Virus genome (UHGV): UHGV-0128973
Direction: 5' to 3' (one strand)
DNA length: 64,000 nucleotides
Source of the DNA: a virus
Below are positions 14,318-37,134 of the stretch, one piece after another. The stretch's first letter is position 1; each line of letters opens with the position of its first letter. The notes beneath the pieces were generated by a model that did no database searches, had not been told where the DNA came from, and saw nothing but the letters and a program-made list of their open reading frames with translations. Made by a program: the position numbers and the translations under genes.

Positions 14318-14474
14318 GTATTTTTAAGTCGCGAATGCTATCTTTTCGCATCATATTGACCTTTTAATCGTTCAGGCTTATAGTTCCGCCGTCGTAGCAA
14401 ATTCTGCGACCGGGTTTAGCAGCCTGAATGTTAGTGCGGACAACCGCAGATATCCGATATTGCGGTATTTTTGT

Positions 14475-14570
14475 GTCCGTAAAACCGCGTTACGCCCAAA
14501 TTATGGTGGGGCGTGATGGGGAGGCTTCGGCCTGCTGGTTTCACTAACGCCAGTCTGCTAACCCCGTCAC
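14475..14570 (+). ncRNA. c4: c4-like antisense regulatory RNA (approximate bounds)
   Basis: Segments cactaac (14541-14547) and ctgctaa (14556-14562) are complementary to duplicated target elements tttagcagc...gttagtg found upstream (14414-14436) and at the icd ribosome-binding site (14584-14621). Confidence 0.4.
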
Positions 14571-14631
14571 GTCCTGCCACCTGTTTAGCAGCGGGTAGCA
14601 GGTTGTTAAACCTGTTAGTGAGGCCGTAACT

Positions 14632-18020: not shown

Positions 18021-18074
18021 TACAATCGTTGCGGGTGCTTGAGGCTATCTGCTTCAGGTATTACCCGAAAAGCA

Positions 18075-18152
18075 GATAGAAGAAAGCCCCAGATAACATT
18101 ACGCGTCCTGCAAGACGCTTAACATTAATCTGAGGCCATATCTATGCTTAGC
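18075..18152 (-). ncRNA. Sok-like antisense RNA (putative)
   Basis: Minus-strand promoter-like TTGACC-N18-TAATCT (plus coordinates 18159-18189) would drive a transcript antisense to the mok start at 18144. Confidence 0.3.
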
Positions 18153-18350
18153 ATACGTAGATTAGCCTCTTACCGACCAAAAGGTCAAGGAGAAGCAGGC
18201 TATGAAGCAGCAAAAAGCGATGTTAATCGCTCTGATCGTCATCTGTTTAACCGTCATTGTGACGGCACTGGTAACGAGGAAAGACCTCTGCGAGGTACGA
18301 ATCCGAACCAGCCAGACGGAGGTCACTGTCTTCACAGCCTACGAATCTGA
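18144..18350 (+). CDS. Mok-like overlapping reading frame (68 aa)
   Basis: ORF track; starts upstream of hok and overlaps it in another frame, as in hok/mok/sok loci. Confidence 0.4.
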   Translation: MLSIRRLASYRPKGQGEAGYEAAKSDVNRSDRHLFNRHCDGTGNEERPLRGTNPNQPDGGHCLHSLRI

Positions 18351-32157: not shown

Positions 32158-34418
32158 AAGAGCTGTGCTATGGATCTGTTTGCAGTGGAATTGAAGCCGC
32201 GAGTATTGCCTGGGAACCGTTGGGTATGCGTCCGGCGTGGTTTGCTGAAATCGAGCCTTTTCCATCTGCCGTTCTTGCGCACCGCTGGCCCCATGTCGCC
32301 AACCTTGGCGACATGACAAAACTTGCCAAAAAAGTCCTGGCTGGGGAAATCGAATCCCCTGATGTGCTCGTCGGGGGTACGCCTTGTCAGGCATTCAGTA
32401 TCGCGGGCTTACGTGGTGGGCTTGATGATGAACGCGGCGCGCTAACTTTGAAGTATGTGGAGCTTGCAAATGCAATTGACGACAAACGGTCTGAGTCCTT
32501 CCTCAAACCGACAGTTATCGTCTGGGAAAATGTCCCAGGAGTCCTGTCATCGGCAGATAACGCCTTCGGATGTTTCCTTGCCGGATTGGCTGGAGAAGAT
32601 GCGCCATTTGAACCAGGTGATCGACCTGAATCAGGAAAAAGTAACGCGTTCTGGCGGTGGGATGGCAAAACCGGTTGCCATGCTCCAAAGTGGCCGCAGT
32701 GTGGTTGTATTTATGGACCGCAGCGAAAGGTGGCCTGGAGAATCCTTGATGCCCAATACTTCGGAGTGGCACAACGACGCCGACGCGTGTTTGTTGTCGC
32801 AAGTGCTCGAACAGACCTCGATCCCGCAACGGTACTTTTTGAGTTCGAAGGCGTGCGCCGGAATATTGCGCCGAGCCGAAAAAAGAAGGAAATCGCTTCC
32901 GCCATTATTGCAAATGGCGCTGCAATCAGTGGCGAAAGCCTAAATCCATGCCTACACGCTGACATGCCACCCGGTATGAAATCGACGAAAGCCGTAAACG
33001 CTTTCAGGATGGCGGCATTTGGGGAATATATTGACGATGAAACCGCATCGACAGTAAAGGCAAGAGATTTTAAAGATGCCACTGACCTTGCCGTTTTTAG
33101 CAGCACAGGAGCAGGTTTTTGGTCAGAAGGGCATGGTACATTGCGGGCACGTGAGCAAGAAAGCCATGAGCATCTTGTTACATTGGCTTTTCCTGAGCGT
33201 ATGAGCGGTACACAACATGCTGCAACTAAGAATACTTCACCATCTCTAATGGCTAAAAATCCAACAGCTGTATGCTATGAAGTAAGAAACGCAGAAGTAG
33301 CTGTCCGCCGTCTTACCCCTGTCGAATGTGAAAGGCTGCAAGGTTTTCCTGATGGGCATACGTTGATCCCGACGGAAAAGCGTAAAAAAGTTAATTCAGA
33401 TGAACTGGCATATCTTCGCAATCACTATCCAGATTTAAGCGAAGAAGAGGCCGCGATGCTTGCAGCTGACGGACCGCGTTACAAAGCGATCGGCAATAGT
33501 ATGGCAATACCAGTAATGTGCTGGATTGGCGATCGGATTACTAAGGCCGTATGTCGGCAGAAAGAAGGAAGTGAAACAAAAGAGCGAAAAGTTAAACCAG
33601 CGGCAGAATTCGAACGGTCCATATTCAAATGGGCTGGTGGAAAATTTGGTGTTCTGGAACAAATCTTTCGCTATTTGCCAGAAGGGAAGCGCCTGATTGA
33701 ACCTTTCGTTGGTGGCGGAGCTGTCTTCATGAATGCCGGATACCAGGAAAATCTGCTAAATGATGTGAATGCTGACCTGATTAACTTTTACAAGACTCTG
33801 CAACGCGAGGCGCATTCACTTATCACTCTGGCACATCGTTTCTTCCAGGACTACAACACGCAGGAAGGATACCTGGCAGTACGGAATGCGTTTAACAAAC
33901 AAGTCTATGATGATTTACATCGCGCAGCGGCGTTTTTGTTCCTGAACCGACATTGTTTTAACGGATTGACGCGTTACAACCAAGCCGGTGAGTTCAATGT
34001 CGGTTATGGGAAGTATAAAACTCCGTATTTCCCATTGCAGGAGATGGAAGCCTTCCTTGGTGCGGAAGGGCGTTCTGAGTTTGTATGTGGTGATTTTGCT
34101 GCGGTGATTGAAGCTGCCGGAGAAGGAGATGTCATCTTTTGCGATCCGCCGTATGAACCGCTCCCAAATACAGAGGGATTCACGAACTATTCCGGTCATG
34201 ACTTTAAGTTTGAAGAGCAAAAACGCCTGGTGTCTCTGTTGACGGATGCTCATCGCCGAGGTGCAAAGGTTCTCATTACTAACAGTGGCGCGCCAAACAT
34301 CAGAGAACTTTATCAGGACAGTGGCTTCAGAGTGGAACCTCTTTTTGCCAGACGTTCTGTGTCTTGTAAGGGGGACACTCGAGGTGTTGCTCATGACGTT
34401 ATAGCAATATTGCTCTAA
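32154..34418 (+). CDS. dmt: Bifunctional DNA methyltransferase: N-terminal C5-cytosine MTase-like, C-terminal N6-adenine MTase-like (754 aa)
   Basis: ORF track; GTG start overlapping the hrdC stop; motifs [11 protein letters not shown] and ENVPG (C5-MTase), and DPPY (N6-MTase). Confidence 0.85.
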
Positions 34419-34425
34419 TAAATTT
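34409..34425 (+). promoter_or_regulatory. C1-operator-like 17-mer (ATTGCTCTAATAAATTT) overlapping the dmt stop codon
   Basis: Perfect motif copy; the dmt TAA (34416-34418) lies inside it. Confidence 0.55.
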
Positions 34426-34602
34426 ATTAGTGTAATATCGCCTCAATGAATCGTGATTTATAGAGCGATTTAGCTGTTAGCCGCGACAGGCGCGGCGGCA
34501 AGTATGGCGGGGTAGTGACTCCTTCCCCCTCATGACGCCGAGTTGCCAGGTTGACCATACGCCTAAGTGGCAACACCGAAGTGCGTTACGAGCTTCCAGT
34601 TT

Positions 34603-34628
34603 GCCCATCTTCGGGTGGGCGTTTTTTT
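34603..34628 (+). terminator. Rho-independent terminator after dmt
   Basis: Stem gcccatc / ggtgggc with loop ttcg, followed by a run of seven T. Confidence 0.55.
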
Positions 34629-35093
34629 CAGGGTTTTCGTCATGGTTAGCGACTTTGCGGCGGTTTAGAAACTGACCATTAAAGTAAATGCAAACGATGA
34701 TCTGATGATGGTAGCGGCCTAAGAAGCCAGACGCCACGGGGTATGAGTCGTCCCCCGTCAAAAAATCGACCGCAGAGTGTCCCCGTCTGTGTATTAGGGA
34801 ACGGGGAGGCACAACAGGTAAGGGCGCTGGTGTGATTAACCAGATGAACGAGAAGGGGCCATCTGTTGGTCAGCGTCCTTTCCTGTTGCGTCTTCTTTTC
34901 AGCGTAACAGCGGTGCTTAACAGCACTTTGGGTACAGTTCCACGAATTTACGGGTATATCCCGTCATGCTGAAAGCGCTAATCACGCTGGAAGCCAGGGT
35001 TATGCATCCCCTGTTACCGAATTGCAGCCAGGGCGCGGTGCGCCGAAAAGCATACGGAGGTGGAAGCCCTCGCCGGAGACGTACCCGGCAAGT

Positions 35094-35168
35094 GATGGTG
35101 TAGCTCAGCGGTAGAGCAGTTGGCTGTTAACCAACTGGTCGGTGGTTCGAATCCACCCACCATCGCCA
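35094..35168 (+). tRNA. tRNA-Asn (anticodon GUU)
   Basis: Hand-folded cloverleaf: acceptor GATGGTG/CACCATC, anticodon loop CTGTTAA, T-loop TTCGAAT, encoded CCA. Confidence 0.85.
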
Positions 35169-35173
35169 ATTTA

Positions 35174-35260
35174 GGGGAGTTAGTCCGTAGGGGTAGCGGG
35201 GTAGACTGTAAATCTACTGTCATTGCGACTCGGGTGGTTCGACTCCATCACTCCCCACCA
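35174..35260 (+). tRNA. Type II tRNA with anticodon GUA (tRNA-Tyr-like, 87 nt)
   Basis: Acceptor GGGGAGT/ACTCCCC, anticodon arm GTAGA-CTGTAAA-TCTAC, long variable arm, T-loop TTCGACT, encoded CCA; the D-arm is imperfect. Confidence 0.6.
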
Positions 35261-35264
35261 AATT

Positions 35265-35340
35265 GCCGGTTTAGCTCAGTTGGTAGAGCAGTCGCTTTGT
35301 AAGCGAATGGTCAGCGGTTCGATCCCGTTAACCGGCACCA
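35265..35340 (+). tRNA. tRNA-Thr (anticodon UGU)
   Basis: Acceptor GCCGGTT/AACCGGC, anticodon loop TTTGTAA, T-loop TTCGATC, encoded CCA. Confidence 0.8.
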
Positions 35341-36072
35341 ACACAACAGGTAAGAGCATTTGTAGAGTTCGACTCTCTACCGTGGGCTTTTTCCCGCGAT
35401 GCGAGCCATAAATGCTCTTACCGTTGTGATGAAGTGCAGCTCTTAGAAGCAACCAGAAGATAAGCATCTGGCTTCACAACATAAACCGCAGGAACGACCA
35501 ATAAACGGTAGTCCGTATGGAGAACACCCCGTTGAGGAAGAGGCCTGGCCGGAACCGTAACCGGCACTACAACGTTGAGAACACTGGCGTAACGGGGTCA
35601 TATCCCAATCTACGAATAAATGTTGCGTTGCAGCGTGACAACCAGTGTTCTCAACATTGTGGTGAATGCACAGGCTGATGTGCCGCAACTACAGTAGTGC
35701 GCGCTTTGCGGGGCTTGCTACAACCCTGTGTCGGAGTTCAGCACCGACCATCACAGTTTGATTCTCTGGCATGAGCATAACGCTGAAATAAGTCCAGCCT
35801 GGTGCGGCCCGATCACCCGCCGTTAGCTCCACGAAACGGAGCACGTAACAGGTAAGAGCATTCTCCTGTAACGGGTTCATATCCCAATCTACAGGTCCAC
35901 CAGGAATGCTCTTTCCGTTGCGGTGAATGCGGCTAAGCGCACGCGGGGAAATGGTTATATCAGTCCATTCATTTCTCCTTGTTTCCCCGTCCACGGTGGA
36001 TAACCAGCCAAAGGACACCGGGAGGCACCCGGCACCGCAACCTTATTTCCCAACCAGTAATGAGGTTAATAA

Positions 36073-36498
36073 ATGCTCGGCATTCTCAAAAAGAAATTCC
36101 GCAAAGCGGCTGGCGGAGTCAAGAAGATGGAAAACCGTGATGCGGTGGAAGCGACTGTCTGGGGCGCATATTCCATTGCATACTCTGACGGCACCTGCGA
36201 TGCGAAAGAAATTGCAGTATTGGAAAAAACCATTGCAGCACTTCCTGCCTTTGCGCCGTTCTCCGGTGAAATTGCCCAGATGAGCGCCAATATTCGCGCT
36301 CAATATGAAGCCTCGCCGCGCCGAGCGAATGCCCAGGCTTTACGTGAACTGGCTGACGTGTCTGGAACTAATGATGCGGTAGATGTTCTGTGCCTATGCA
36401 TTGATATTGCTGACCAGGATGGCATTGGGGCAGAAGAGCAGGAGCAATTGAAGAAAATTGCCCAGGCTCTTCAATTGCCACTGGAACAGTATATCTGA
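36073..36498 (+). CDS. tciA: TerB-like protein (tellurite-resistance TerB family, 141 aa)
   Basis: ORF track; acidic TerB-like sequence with DG/EE-rich helices; followed by two tiny membrane ORFs. Confidence 0.55.
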   Translation: MLGILKKKFRKAAGGVKKMENRDAVEATVWGAYSIAYSDGTCDAKEIAVLEKTIAALPAFAPFSGEIAQMSANIRAQYEASPRRANAQALRELADVSGTNDAVDVLCLCIDIADQDGIGAEEQEQLKKIAQALQLPLEQYI

Positions 36499-36662
36499 TG
36501 GTTATAAAAGCACGTCTAATTCTGGCTTTGGTTTTTCTCGTGCTATCTGTGCTGGTGGATTTCACCAGCACAATCCTGTCGGTTTTATCCGACGGGGCGT
36601 TGGTAGCAGTAGCTGTAACATTGGTATGGCCGATATTAAAAACAGCTTCTAAGGAACAGTGA
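36498..36662 (+). CDS. tciB: Small hydrophobic protein (54 aa)
   Basis: My translation (ATG overlapping the tciA stop): MVIKARLILALVFLVLSVLVDFTSTILSVLSDGALVAVAVTLVWPILKTASKEQ; below the ORF-track size cut-off. Confidence 0.4.
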   Translation: MVIKARLILALVFLVLSVLVDFTSTILSVLSDGALVAVAVTLVWPILKTASKEQ

Positions 36663-36769
36663 TGGGCTTCTGGGATTTTGCTGACAAGCATCCAATTGTT
36701 CTCGTTGTCATTGCTGGCATAGTTGTAGGCGGTATTGCTGGCGTCATAGAAGCACTCAGGAAACAGTAA
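36662..36769 (+). CDS. tciC: Small hydrophobic protein (35 aa)
   Basis: My translation (ATGA overlap with tciB stop): MGFWDFADKHPIVLVVIAGIVVGGIAGVIEALRKQ. Confidence 0.35.
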   Translation: MGFWDFADKHPIVLVVIAGIVVGGIAGVIEALRKQ

Positions 36770-36772
36770 TCC

Positions 36773-36848
36773 GGCCCTTTAGCTCAGTGGTTAGAGCTGG
36801 CGACTCATAATCGCACGGTCACCAGTTCAAGTCCGGTAGGGGCCACCA
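36773..36848 (+). tRNA. tRNA with CAU anticodon, Ile2 (lysidine-type) or Met
   Basis: Cloverleaf closely resembles enterobacterial tRNA-Ile2 (GGCCCTTTAGCTCAGTGGTTAGAGC...CTCATAA...TTCAAGT...AGGGGCCACCA). Confidence 0.8.
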
Positions 36849-37134
36849 TATTTGGTTGTAACACGGCGTCTGGCACATGCGTCGTTAGCGGTCTGGTGAC
36901 GTTAAAAGGGGGGAACCTTGCCCCTAGCTCAGGCAACGAACCAGGTAGCCGGAATGTGCAAGCCACCGTTTGTTGTTTCTCGGGTAAAGGGATTCACCAT
37001 CCTGGCGATTCGGTGTGACAGCCGGGAAGAGTCCGGCGCATTAATCCTGATTTTCTGGTGATGACTCATATCGTTAGGAGTGATTTGAGTATGCCGATTA
37101 TATCTGACATTCAGCACGCCTGGGTGGAGTGCTA

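Follow-up and report, generated by a model that had tools for sequence, protein, structure and literature searches.

A modular island of structured RNAs in the ban operon leader of a P1-like phage-plasmid

What is encoded between dmt and tciA in P1-like phage-plasmids? P1 is a textbook phage, yet about 1.4 kb of its untranslated ban operon leader has been described only as two hypothetical minus-strand ORFs and a 'dicF-like region'. We addressed this question in the viral genome UHGV-0128973, using the whole 64,000-nucleotide stretch of a P1-like phage-plasmid (hereafter, the window). An earlier note, based on the sequence alone, described in this interval an array of at least four related inverted-repeat elements (E0–E3), interleaved with the tRNA cluster and not covered by a credible ORF, and read them as candidate stable structured RNAs or pseudo-tRNAs co-transcribed with the tRNAs.

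A family of hairpins shared by unrelated phages

The array is real: all four elements are present at about the positions given in the note, although the spans noted for E0 (to 35000) and E2 (to 35690) run past the hairpins. The elements share the direct-repeat blocks AACAGGTAAGAGCATT, CCATAAATGCTCTTACCGTTGTGATGAA and GTAACGGGGTCATATCCCAATCTAC, and the fold of each is more stable than those of 200 dinucleotide shuffles (Table 1). The description nevertheless required several corrections. The stems are longer than noted, about 20–23 bp, because they are extended by a conserved CACAAC/GTTGTG box. The tail GTTGyGGTGAATGC, attributed to every element, holds for E2 and E3, is approximate for E1 (GTTGTGATGAAGTGC) and is absent in E0. 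In the window, the hairpins flank the tRNA trio rather than interleave with it, whereas in P7, D6 and SSU5-like relatives a tRNA-Ser does sit between hairpins. Finally, the P1 record annotates the minus-strand ORFs plp and upl over E1–E3, such that the absence of an ORF had to be tested (see below).

The four elements are copies of one RNA hairpin family, which we call X hairpins and which, as the note did not remark, is widespread outside P1. It is defined by a CACAAC box, an optional bulged A, a stem of at least 13 bp, a variable loop and a GTTGTG box. The lower stem is constant, with CACAAC, a bulged A and GGUAAG pairing with CUU(U/A)CC and GUUGUG, and carries a recurrent U.U mismatch, whereas the upper stem covaries freely but keeps a recurrent U.G wobble. 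Across 51 distinct copies from unrelated enterobacterial phages, 94.9% of 969 cells pair, against a shuffle mean of 83.2% and maximum of 85.0% (0 of 500 shuffles as high), and 12 of 19 pairs show compensated double changes. G.U pairs outnumber A.C 81 to 18, pointing to a plus-strand RNA. Compensatory changes occur both among the paralogs and among the copies in unrelated phages; moreover, P1 and the window differ at E1 by two compensated pairs while their flanks are about 95% identical. A covariance model built only from 27 hairpins of non-P1 phages, run over both strands of the window, ranks E3, E0 and E1 as the three best hits, each scoring higher on the plus strand than on the mirror strand, and nothing outside this interval scores below E = 1. 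E2 fits the pattern by inspection and is counted in the pair table, but belongs to a divergent class that this GGTAAG-class model captures only partially.

The loops, 29–93 nt in length, fall into discrete types shared between unrelated phages. The type-b loop occurs in P7, JL22, Ro157c2 and, on a different stem, in Felix O1; the type-c loop occurs in the window, CobraSix and lambdoid contigs. Loops are swapped between otherwise near-identical P1-likes, and JL22 has an extra hairpin module. The hairpins lie at the borders of other RNA modules: after tRNA-Thr in the window, P1, P7, D6 and SSU5-like plasmids, directly after tRNA-Ser in SSU5-like plasmids, and immediately before and after the M module (see below) in lambdoid contigs. 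N4 has a different long hairpin right after its tRNA-Thr. The contexts are always long untranslated or intergenic transcript regions, namely, the ban leader, pR'-tQ in HK620, Q-tRNA-holin in CobraSix, the Felix O1 tRNA cluster and intergenic regions in ZX4 and Sasha.

Table 1. Features of the island and its surroundings, in window coordinates.
Position	Strand	Feature	Sequence and structure	Folding (kcal/mol; z)	Support
34404..34441	+	C1 operator Op72/Pban promoter palindrome	End of dmt; start of the ban operon		Position matches the P1 annotation; inverted repeat
34599..34628	+	Strong intrinsic terminator	Ends the region called 'dicF-like' in P1		Terminator scan; P1 misc_feature; no Rfam DicF match at E up to 10
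34633..34807	+	M module, resembling the message domain of tmRNA	Invariant GUUUUCG; tag frame; hairpin H1 (34737-34741/34753-34757); pseudoknot (GUCG 34747-34750 with CGAC 34767-34770); hairpin H2 (34781-34786/34801-34806)		Weak Rfam tmRNA_permuted and beta_tmRNA hits over the resume and tag region; ARAGORN at a lowered threshold; covariation
34690..34722	+	Ten-codon tag-like frame	GCA AAC GAT GAT CTG ATG ATG GTA GCG GCC TAA, ANDDLMMVAA*		Recurrence and substitution pattern
34803..34897	+	E0, X hairpin	Boxes CACAAC 34810-34815 and GTTGCG 34885-34890; arms 34807-34829/34871-34893, 23 nt, 83% complementary; the otherwise bulged A is paired with a U	-50.2; -4.8	Model hit 22.1 bits, E 6.5e-4
34898..35093	+	Spacer module	Hairpin CGGGUAUAUCCCG (34951-34963); ends in CCGG-loop-CCGG-CA just 5' of tRNA-Asn	z -1.35 for 34905-35020 (not significant on its own)	Sequence; direct repeat
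35094..35340	+	tRNA-Asn(GTT) 35094-35168, tRNA-Tyr(GTA) 35174-35260, tRNA-Thr(TGT) 35265-35340			ARAGORN and Rfam
roughly 35306..35875	-	plp and upl of P1 (GenBank AF234172)			P1 annotation only
35342..35428	+	E1, X hairpin	Starts 2 nt after the CCA of tRNA-Thr; arms 35349-35361/35410-35422, 13 nt, 100%; loop is a T-loop hairpin (GUAGAG UUCGACU CUCUAC) plus a second hairpin	-44.4; -6.0	Model hit 20.2 bits, E 2.3e-3; consensus fold with compensated pairs
35429..35564	+	Spacer module	Conserved hairpin CCAGAAGAUAAGCAUCUGG; ends in CCGG-AACCGUAA-CCGG-CAC		Nearly identical in all P1-likes; first 57 nt (35425-35481) match Sasha-like and P22-like phages
35565..35664	+	E2, X hairpin of the GTTGAG class	No bulge; arms 35565-35587/35642-35664, 23 nt, 91%	-49.6; -4.9	Partial model hit
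35665..35843	+	Spacer module	Opens with GUGAAU plus hairpin GCACAGGCUGAUGUGC; ends with hairpin GCUCCACGAAACGGAGC		The same two hairpins flank X hairpins in lambdoid viral contigs
35844..35922	+	E3, X hairpin	Boxes CGTAAC and GTTGCG; arms 35851-35863/35904-35916, 13 nt, 92%	-35.4; -4.5	Model hit 29.6 bits, E 5e-6
35916..36043	+	tRNA-shaped module resembling STnc100	Closing stem GUUGCGGUG/CACCGCAAC overlaps the 3' box of E3; hairpin CCGGG-AGGCA-CCCGG abuts the 3' strand	z -3.8	Rfam RF02076, 37.8 bits, E 5e-6

tRNA-shaped modules, a tmRNA-message-like module and two unsupported ORFs

The interpretation offered in the note is partly supported. The elements are conserved structured RNAs of the plus strand and lie, according to the annotations, in the C1-controlled ban operon together with the tRNAs, but the pseudo-tRNA reading holds only in part, and their accumulation as stable RNAs remains an inference. 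Measured against a T-arm, with a 5-bp stem and a 7-nt loop UUCRANY, E1 holds a true T-loop hairpin (6 bp), which keeps pairing through two compensated changes in CobraSix and in lambdoid contigs. The E1 loop of P1 has a D-arm-like hairpin and the T-arm AGGGUUCGAAUCCCU (AGGG-UUCGAAU-CCCU). By contrast, the loops of E2 (GUCAUAU) and E3 (UUCAUAU) lack A58 and are T-loop-like only. The modules between the hairpins have acceptor-like closing stems. However, none of the elements or modules is recognized as a tRNA: ARAGORN at default settings and Rfam RF00005 find only Asn, Tyr, Thr and Met(CAT), and ARAGORN calls at 70–80% thresholds are mutually overlapping noise, the one useful product of which was the tag frame. 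The modules are conserved in their own right and are not decaying gene copies.

Rfam searches at the gathering threshold over the window, and at an E-value threshold over 34350-37100 and 34440-35095, gave only tRNAs, a sub-threshold STnc100 hit, weak tmRNA hits and meaningless microRNA-precursor hits that merely reflect the hairpin shape; a gathering-threshold scan of 16 related loci gave only tRNAs. The last module, not remarked upon in the note, is related to STnc100 (RF02076)/PasD prophage sRNAs. Positions 35919-36039 align to the core of the model, with the closing stem GGUGAAU...CACC and the hairpin CCGGGAGGCACCCGG, and both are phage or prophage noncoding elements found in leader regions near lysis genes or tRNAs. 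However, the score, obtained in a 2.75-kb search, is below the gathering score of 47 and only model positions 31–147 of 206 match, so that this is a relative and not a member by the Rfam rule. In addition, the window copy has no terminator and runs straight into tciA, and the X hairpins themselves are not part of the STnc100 model.

Also missed was the M module, upstream of E0. Its ten-codon frame resembles the ssrA tag, and the module recurs in Felix O1, HK620 and SSU5-like plasmids; the same 10-codon AN[DE].. frame occurs in 116 of 120 viral contigs, with substitutions biased to synonymous and third-position changes. At least 350 of 5,426 complete E. coli genomes carry the M module. A genome-wide species scan for M was dominated by chance matches and served only as a control, showing that chance matches to the same search pattern almost never give such a frame. 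In 28 sequences, 88.8% of the M module positions pair, against 72.2% in shuffles, and all 4 pairs of the pseudoknot downstream of the frame show compensated changes. RNAalifold found no structure upstream of the frame, and the long-range helix of P1 (34652-34666/34763-34778) is not conserved in HK620-type copies beyond a GCG/CGC core. A conventional small ORF was rejected, since the GCA frame has no in-frame ATG, GTG or TTG and no Shine-Dalgarno sequence, and the overlapping ATG frame varies from 5 to 9 codons.

The P1 genes plp and upl, by contrast, have no support as protein-coding genes. Neither has a Pfam or NCBIfam hit below E 0.05. The 125-codon plp frame of P1 is split into 63- and 81-codon ORFs in the window, and whole hairpin modules are inserted or replaced inside it in JL22, P7 and the window. 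P7 annotators did not call these genes, and the PLSDB gene table, although incomplete, rarely lists a gene there. The DNA is explained by plus-strand RNA structure, and plp and upl are probably spurious in P1-type annotations.

Thus, this DNA is a mosaic of conserved RNA modules shared with Felix O1, HK620, SSU5-like plasmids, Sasha-like and Klebsiella phages, and prophages. None of these modules is annotated or in Rfam apart from a relative of STnc100, and literature searches on the P1 ban operon tRNAs, tmRNA-like phage elements and phage tmRNA, which did not extend to the P1 genome paper (PMC523184), found nothing describing them.

Possible functions of the island

The interval is best explained as a polycistronic noncoding RNA island, in which M, the hairpins, spacer modules, tRNAs and the STnc100-like module follow each other up to tciA. 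Our analysis establishes the conserved plus-strand structure of the X hairpins, with their constant lower stem, covarying upper stem and discrete loop types, as well as their position at module borders. Their function, including any cleavage, is inferred, and the following model is tentative. The hairpins would act in cis as processing or insulator punctuation, with a host double-strand-specific nuclease most likely cutting the constant lower stem; RNase III is the obvious candidate for stems of about 20 bp with internal irregularities, albeit inferred from shape only. The cut would separate tRNAs, M and the tRNA-shaped modules from the long leader and leave each with a protected helical end. 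In this view, the last four bases of the 3' box (UGUG) are also the start of the acceptor-like stem of the next module, so that cleavage or opening of the hairpin would free that module to fold, and the upper stem and loop may be released as a small RNA. If so, the hairpins define how phage tRNAs and sRNAs are cut out of long leaders. Several observations fit this model poorly. A sequence-constant lower stem is more than RNase III is known to need and suggests a specific binding partner, whereas simple punctuation does not explain why loops come in conserved types, some with genuine T-loops. A strong intrinsic terminator lies between Pban and the island and no sigma-70 consensus promoter was found downstream, such that the level of transcription is uncertain. 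Furthermore, the tRNA-Tyr insertion in the window has no hairpin of its own. The closest systems are the RNase III processing hairpins of phage polycistronic transcripts (T7 early and late sites, the lambda N leader) and the RNase III-sensitive species 1 RNA of the T4 tRNA cluster. These too have stems of about 20 bp with internal irregularities, repeated between functional units of one long phage transcript, with paralogous sites resembling each other and, in T4, located next to phage tRNAs. The X hairpins differ in the constant sequence of the lower stem, in large loops of conserved types, some of them tRNA-like, and in being shared by many unrelated phages.

A less likely possibility is that the X hairpins are themselves the functional products, i.e., small stable RNAs in which a constant stem presents a variable functional loop. 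Some loops mimic the tRNA elbow (T-loop and D-loop), and such RNAs could act in trans as decoys or ligands for host or phage factors recognizing tRNA or tmRNA, such as RNase P, modification enzymes, SmpB or tRNA-targeting defence nucleases. Consistent with this, loop types are conserved across unrelated phages while the stems differ, and the T-loop hairpin of E1 covaries. The T-loop motif GTTCRANYC occurs in 5 of 26 unique loops, against 0.04 expected in shuffles, and in 4 of the 5 it lies 4 nt from the 3' arm. The related modules STnc100 and PasD accumulate as abundant Hfq-associated sRNAs in Salmonella and EPEC (bioRxiv 10.64898/2026.05.13.724894). However, the hairpins have no promoters or terminators of their own, many loops lack any recognizable motif, and the most conserved part is the base of the stem, not the loop.

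It is unlikely, although not excluded, that many enterobacterial phages, including P1-like and SSU5-like phage-plasmids, Felix O1-like, P22-like and lambdoid phages and Klebsiella siphoviruses, carry an unrecognized, highly diverged relative of tmRNA, in which M templates a phage-specific degradation tag, AN(D/E)(D/E)xx(L/M)x(A/V)A. The X hairpins and tRNA-shaped modules would be the remaining parts of a segmented trans-translation RNA; alternatively, the RNA could hijack or jam the host SmpB-tmRNA system. If the module is used in translation, phages would be manipulating ribosome rescue and protein tagging. The specific version, in which an adjacent X hairpin with a T-arm and D-arm loop, or the following acceptor-stem module, supplies the tRNA-like domain and the X stem plays the part of tmRNA helix 2, is more doubtful still. 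In favour of a tmRNA link, the GCA-AAC-GA. frame encodes AN(D/E)(D/E)....A(A/V)A*, lacks an in-frame canonical start codon, shows peptide-level selection and keeps U/C then A at positions -5 and -4 before the GCA codon, as in E. coli ssrA (U then A). It is directly followed by the covarying pseudoknot, and M is nearly always flanked by X hairpins and tRNA-shaped modules. In some lambdoid contigs, a type-c hairpin directly precedes M, and the order of stem strand, T-loop hairpin, second hairpin, stem strand and message echoes permuted two-piece tmRNA genes. The permuted-tmRNA model of Rfam gives the best, though weak, hit, and the TLD-only gene of mycobacteriophage DS6A is a precedent for a partial tmRNA in a phage (PMC4131195). 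By contrast, no tRNA-like domain was found. We looked for an acceptor partner of the M 5' end, for G3.U70 and for encoded CCA after the acceptor-like stems, and none was consistent: the stems inspected have U3:A70 or C3:G70 and no conserved CCA. ARAGORN at default settings finds no tmRNA in the window or in any of the 120 loci, the domains that it assigns at a lowered threshold are not credible, and Rfam tmRNA scores are 11–25 bits against a gathering score of 47. The sequence before the frame (29–46 nt) is too short for a tmRNA-sized PK1, the hairpin preceding M has varied loops, often without a T-loop, and in P1 the element preceding M is a terminator, not a hairpin. An exhaustive ssrA survey of 2014 did not report any enterobacterial phage.

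Even less probable is a role mainly at the DNA level, with the conserved arms serving as homology patches where phages exchange cassettes (tRNAs, ORFs, loops), or with the hairpins being folded single-strand recombination sites like integron attC, or miniature transposable elements. Module presence and absence and loop replacement do have breakpoints inside the arms, the same modules occur in very different phages, and one plasmid (H63) carries a TnpB element inserted in this region. Integron attC sites and enterobacterial MITEs such as ERIC are likewise imperfect inverted repeats of 70–120 nt with conserved ends, a bulged base and cassette-like gain and loss, and the boxes loosely recall the attC R'' and R' boxes. 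However, (A)CACAAC/GTTGTG(R) mismatches the RYYYAAC/GTTRRRY consensus at two positions, no integron integrase is annotated nearby in P1-likes, no target-site duplications were noticed, and the interiors are not copies of one master element, as would be expected for MITEs. The excess of G.U over A.C and the conserved U.G wobble indicate selection on one transcribed strand, and recombination at repeats could simply be a by-product of an RNA function.

There is little to suggest that the hairpins shield a long untranslated transcript from Rho or form part of an antitermination signal. Many 3' arms carry UGCUCUUU, the core of rrn boxA (consensus 3' arm, CAGUGCUCUUUCC), the spacer after E1 has AGCUCUUA followed by a hairpin, resembling a nut site, and the contexts include N, Q and ban leaders; the spacer hairpin CCAGAAGAUAAGCAUCUGG also lies just upstream of the N-like gene of the P22-like phage SPN9CC. 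Yet, a boxA site would require a single-stranded, sequence-constant GCUCUUU(A) core, whereas here the core is in the paired 3' arm and its GCUC positions covary freely with the 5' arm, so that selection is for pairing and not for the boxA sequence. A paired boxA should not bind NusB/NusE, and the family also occurs in virulent phages and in structural-gene intergenic regions.

The least likely reading, decayed and functionless duplicates of tRNA genes or of plp and upl, draws on tRNA-3'-end-like strings (CCGGCAC...) preceding E1, E2 and the tciA leader and on the P1 annotation, but is already largely refuted by the compensatory maintenance of the hairpins across distant phages, by the lack of homologous families for plp and upl, and by their frames, which break between close relatives, with plp overlapping tRNA-Thr.

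Setting of the RNA island in the ban operon leader

The window is a P1-like phage-plasmid. The stretch between 34400 and 36100 matches P1, P7, JL22, RCS47 and hundreds of P1-type plasmids at 91-99% identity. Comparison with the P1 record shows that the hairpins lie in the long untranslated leader of the ban operon, where tciA is followed by tciB, tciC, tRNA-Met(CAT) and ban. The region that P1 annotators called dicF-like ends in a strong intrinsic terminator and has no Rfam DicF match even at E-values up to 10; it may be a separate short RNA made from Pban. This terminator lies between Pban and the island, and a simple scan found no promoter downstream of it.

The 87-nt tRNA-Tyr(GTA) located between tRNA-Asn and tRNA-Thr is absent from P1, P7 and D6, but is present in Ro157c2 and some SSU5-like plasmids. 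The homologous cluster of N4 carries a long-arm tRNA at the same position, labelled tRNA-Ser by other annotators. Some P1-like contigs (loci L018, L019, L037 and L052) carry a tRNA-Arg(TCT) at the position of tRNA-Asn(GTT). In L018, the one sequence that was read, the acceptor stem and T-arm are identical to those of tRNA-Asn and only the D-loop and anticodon arm differ, which looks like an anticodon-arm swap. tRNA-Thr also exists in two alleles with compensated anticodon-stem differences.

Coordinates, folding and covariance-model scores of the features discussed (model scores as plus-strand bits and E-value; mirror, bits of the mirror hit on the minus strand)
Feature	Coordinates	Energy (kcal/mol)	z-score	Model score	Mirror
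C4 antisense RNA, its a1/b1 target, and sok antitoxin RNA	14378-14584 and 18033-18207				
C1 operator Op72 and Pban promoter palindrome	about 34404-34441				
End of dmt	34418				
P1 'dicF-like region'	34533-34634				
Intrinsic terminator	34599-34628				
M module	34633-34807				
Ten-codon tag-like frame in M	34690-34722				
E0 hairpin	34803-34897	-50.2	-4.8	22.1, E 6.5e-4	14.7
tRNA-Asn, tRNA-Tyr and tRNA-Thr together	35094-35340				
tRNA-Asn(GTT)	35094-35168				
tRNA-Tyr(GTA)	35174-35260				
E1 hairpin	35342-35428	-44.4	-6.0	20.2, E 2.3e-3	15.9
boxA/boxB-like part of the spacer after E1	35438-35475 (and 2001-2057 of comparison locus L010)				
E2 hairpin	35565-35664	-49.6	-4.9		
E3 hairpin	35844-35922	-35.4	-4.5	29.6, E 5e-6	11.6
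STnc100-like spacer	35916-36043				
Start of tciA	36073				

The X hairpins are a family, not a P1 peculiarity

The four inverted-repeat elements described in the earlier note, E0 to E3, all exist. Their arms were recovered by an inverted-repeat search, and none of 200 shuffles folded as well as any of the four native sequences. However, the stems are longer than the note stated, because they are extended by a conserved box, CACAAC at the 5' side and GTTGTG at the 3' side. Using a purpose-written hairpin finder, we found the same design, hereafter X hairpins, in P1, P7, D6, JL22, SJ46 and Ro157c2, in Salmonella phages Sasha and 118970_sal3, in Enterobacter phage CobraSix (between Q/tRNA-Arg and the holin gene), in Klebsiella phage ZX4, in the pR'-tQ late leader of HK620 and in many IMG/VR contigs. 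SSU5-like phage-plasmids have five copies, one directly after tRNA-Thr and one directly after tRNA-Ser. In P7 and D6, a hairpin with degenerate boxes (CGCAAC / ATTGCG) starts about 10 nt after tRNA-Ser. Felix O1 has a hairpin with different boxes but the same loop as P7, whereas N4 has other long hairpins next to its homologous tRNA cluster, including one directly after tRNA-Thr.

The consensus of the family is CACAAC, a bulged A, GGUAAG followed by a variable part, a loop of 29-93 nt, a variable part followed by CUU(U/A)CC, and GUUGUG, often followed by GUGAAUGC. In 51 distinct copies, 94.9% of 969 cells form standard pairs, whereas shuffles of the 3' partners average 83.2% with a maximum of 85.0%, and 0 of 500 reach the observed value. 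Since the pair counts include paralogs and related sequences, the shuffle controls overstate significance somewhat. Compensated double changes are found in 12 of 19 pairs, and G.U cells outnumber A.C cells 81 to 18, placing the selected structure on the plus strand, which is the transcribed one. Recurrent irregularities are the bulged A, a U.U or U:A pair at the third stem position and a U.G wobble at the eleventh. A covariance model built from 27 copies, none of them from a P1-like element, was run without filters over all 64 kb on both strands. E3, E0 and E1 are the three best hits, and nothing else scores below E = 1. E2 belongs to a GTTGAG class that this model does not capture.

Close relatives with about 95% identical flanks carry unrelated loops at the same position. 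P1 and D6 have a loop with a D-arm-like hairpin and a T-arm (AGGGUUCGAAUCCCU) abutting the 3' strand, P7 and Ro157c2 have a 29-nt loop, JL22 has both modules in tandem, and the sequence studied here has a loop with a T-loop hairpin next to the 5' strand. These loops are not random. Besides the P7-type loop shared with Felix O1, the E1 loop of the sequence studied here recurs in CobraSix and lambdoid contigs with two compensated pairs in its T-loop hairpin. The T-loop motif occurs in 5 of 26 unique loops, against 0.04 expected by shuffling.

The spacers between the hairpins are also shared modules. Parts of 35341-36072 match Sasha-like, P22-like, Klebsiella and Cronobacter phages in unannotated DNA. 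Several spacers are closed by GUUGYGRUG...CACYRCAAC, and a hairpin of the form CCGG-loop-CCGG sits directly 5' of the closing 3' strand, where a T-arm would sit next to an acceptor strand. The last four bases of each hairpin's 3' box are also the first bases of the next module's closing stem; therefore, the two structures compete. The last spacer matches the core of Rfam STnc100 below threshold (37.8 bits against 47, E 5e-6). STnc100 and its relative PasD are prophage sRNAs that accumulate and bind Hfq (bioRxiv 10.64898/2026.05.13.724894; PMC12370729). The spacer after E1 reads AGCUCUUAGAAGCAA followed by the hairpin CCAGAAGAUAAGCAUCUGG, which resembles boxA plus boxB. This hairpin is conserved in Sasha and also lies just upstream of the N-like antiterminator gene of the P22-like phage SPN9CC. 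P1 is not known to have an N protein.

The P1 record annotates two minus-strand genes, plp and upl, over E1-E3, but a protein-coding role is not supported. Neither has Pfam or NCBIfam relatives. The plp frame overlaps tRNA-Thr, is split in the present sequence, and has whole modules inserted or replaced inside it in relatives. P7 annotators did not call these genes, and the PLSDB gene table, which is incomplete, rarely lists a gene there.

A frame resembling the ssrA tag in the M module

Weak Rfam hits to tmRNA models and an ARAGORN run at a lowered threshold pointed to an unexpected element inside the interval, in the module that we call M. The frame reads GCA AAC GAT GAT CTG ATG ATG GTA GCG GCC TAA, encoding ANDDLMMVAA followed by a stop codon. 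The E. coli ssrA tag, ANDENYALAA, also has ten codons starting with GCA AAC GA. Homologous positions encode ANEEVYLAVA in SSU5-like plasmids (followed by two stop codons), ANDNVFLAVA in Felix O1, and ANEEMYLAVA in both HK620 and Klebsiella phage ZX4 (each followed by one stop codon). A pattern fixing only GTTTTCGT, a gap and AATGCAAACGA retrieved at least 120 viral contigs; of the 120 analyzed, 116 have exactly ten codons of the form AN[DE][DEN]xxxxxA and a stop. By contrast, the same pattern in 596 Gb of genomes gives mostly chance matches. Only 11 of the 120 such matches analyzed have ten codons. Eight of these are tag-like, at least five of them from Enterobacterales, and the other three are clearly unrelated.

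Substitutions suggest selection on the peptide. Among ORF pairs that differ by one base, 10 changes are synonymous and 9 are not, whereas the expected synonymous fraction is 22.7%; 12 of the 19 changes are at codon position 3 and 1 is at position 2. There is no in-frame ATG, GTG or TTG, and positions -5 and -4 are U/C then A, as in E. coli. The frame is followed by a hairpin, a 4-bp pseudoknot whose two strands covary through five variants (CCGA/UCGG, CCAG/CUGG, CCAA/UUGG, CUAG/CUAG and GUCG/CGAC) and a second hairpin with the conserved loop GUGUGAUUAAUAA. On 28 sequences, 88.8% of cells pair against 72.2% in shuffles, with 65 double-change cells against 20.5 expected, and slid controls reach at most 59%.

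No tRNA-like domain was found for M, either at this locus or in the viral contigs inspected. The element is unannotated everywhere, including in at least 350 of 5,426 complete E. coli genomes, and absent from Rfam. An exhaustive ssrA survey reported phage ssrA only in mycobacteriophages and Bacillus phage G, as well as a TLD-only gene in DS6A (PMC4131195). In lambdoid contigs the usual order is X hairpin, M, X hairpin and tRNA-shaped module, whereas here it is terminator, M and E0. In Felix O1 (locus L014, 1727-1805), a tRNA-model hit of 31.7 bits, which is not annotated in the record, lies directly after the M module and hairpin.

Interpretation and neighbouring elements

We consider it established by the analysis that the region is a plus-strand RNA island of conserved modules and that the elements of the earlier note are the X hairpins bordering them. 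The note's reading of these elements as candidate stable structured RNAs or pseudo-tRNAs co-transcribed with the tRNAs is only partly supported. What the hairpins do, including any cleavage, is inferred. Our tentative preference, resting on shape, border position and the overlap between each 3' box and the stem of the next module, is that they are cis-acting processing or insulating punctuation, with RNase III as the most plausible enzyme. The main alternative, which remains possible although unlikely, is that the hairpins are themselves trans-acting scaffolded RNAs; it is favoured by the conserved loop types and true T-loops. Less likely still, but not excluded, M, the hairpins and the tRNA-shaped modules might together form a phage trans-translation or anti-trans-translation device, a possibility that lacks a demonstrable tRNA-like domain with alanine identity. 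DNA-level cassette exchange, antitermination or anti-Rho roles, and decay of duplicated genes are less likely.

In the P1-like phage Ro157c2YLVW (locus L002, 3292-4336), a hypothetical gene and a putative serine protease replace tciA-tciC downstream of the hairpin array, showing cassette exchange at the end of the island. One P1-like plasmid (NZ_CP020936) has an RNA-guided endonuclease TnpB-family gene inserted in the dmt-tRNA leader region. Elsewhere in the 64 kb, Rfam matches above the gathering score correspond to the C4 antisense RNA, its a1/b1 target and a sok antitoxin RNA, which are expected P1 immunity and addiction elements.
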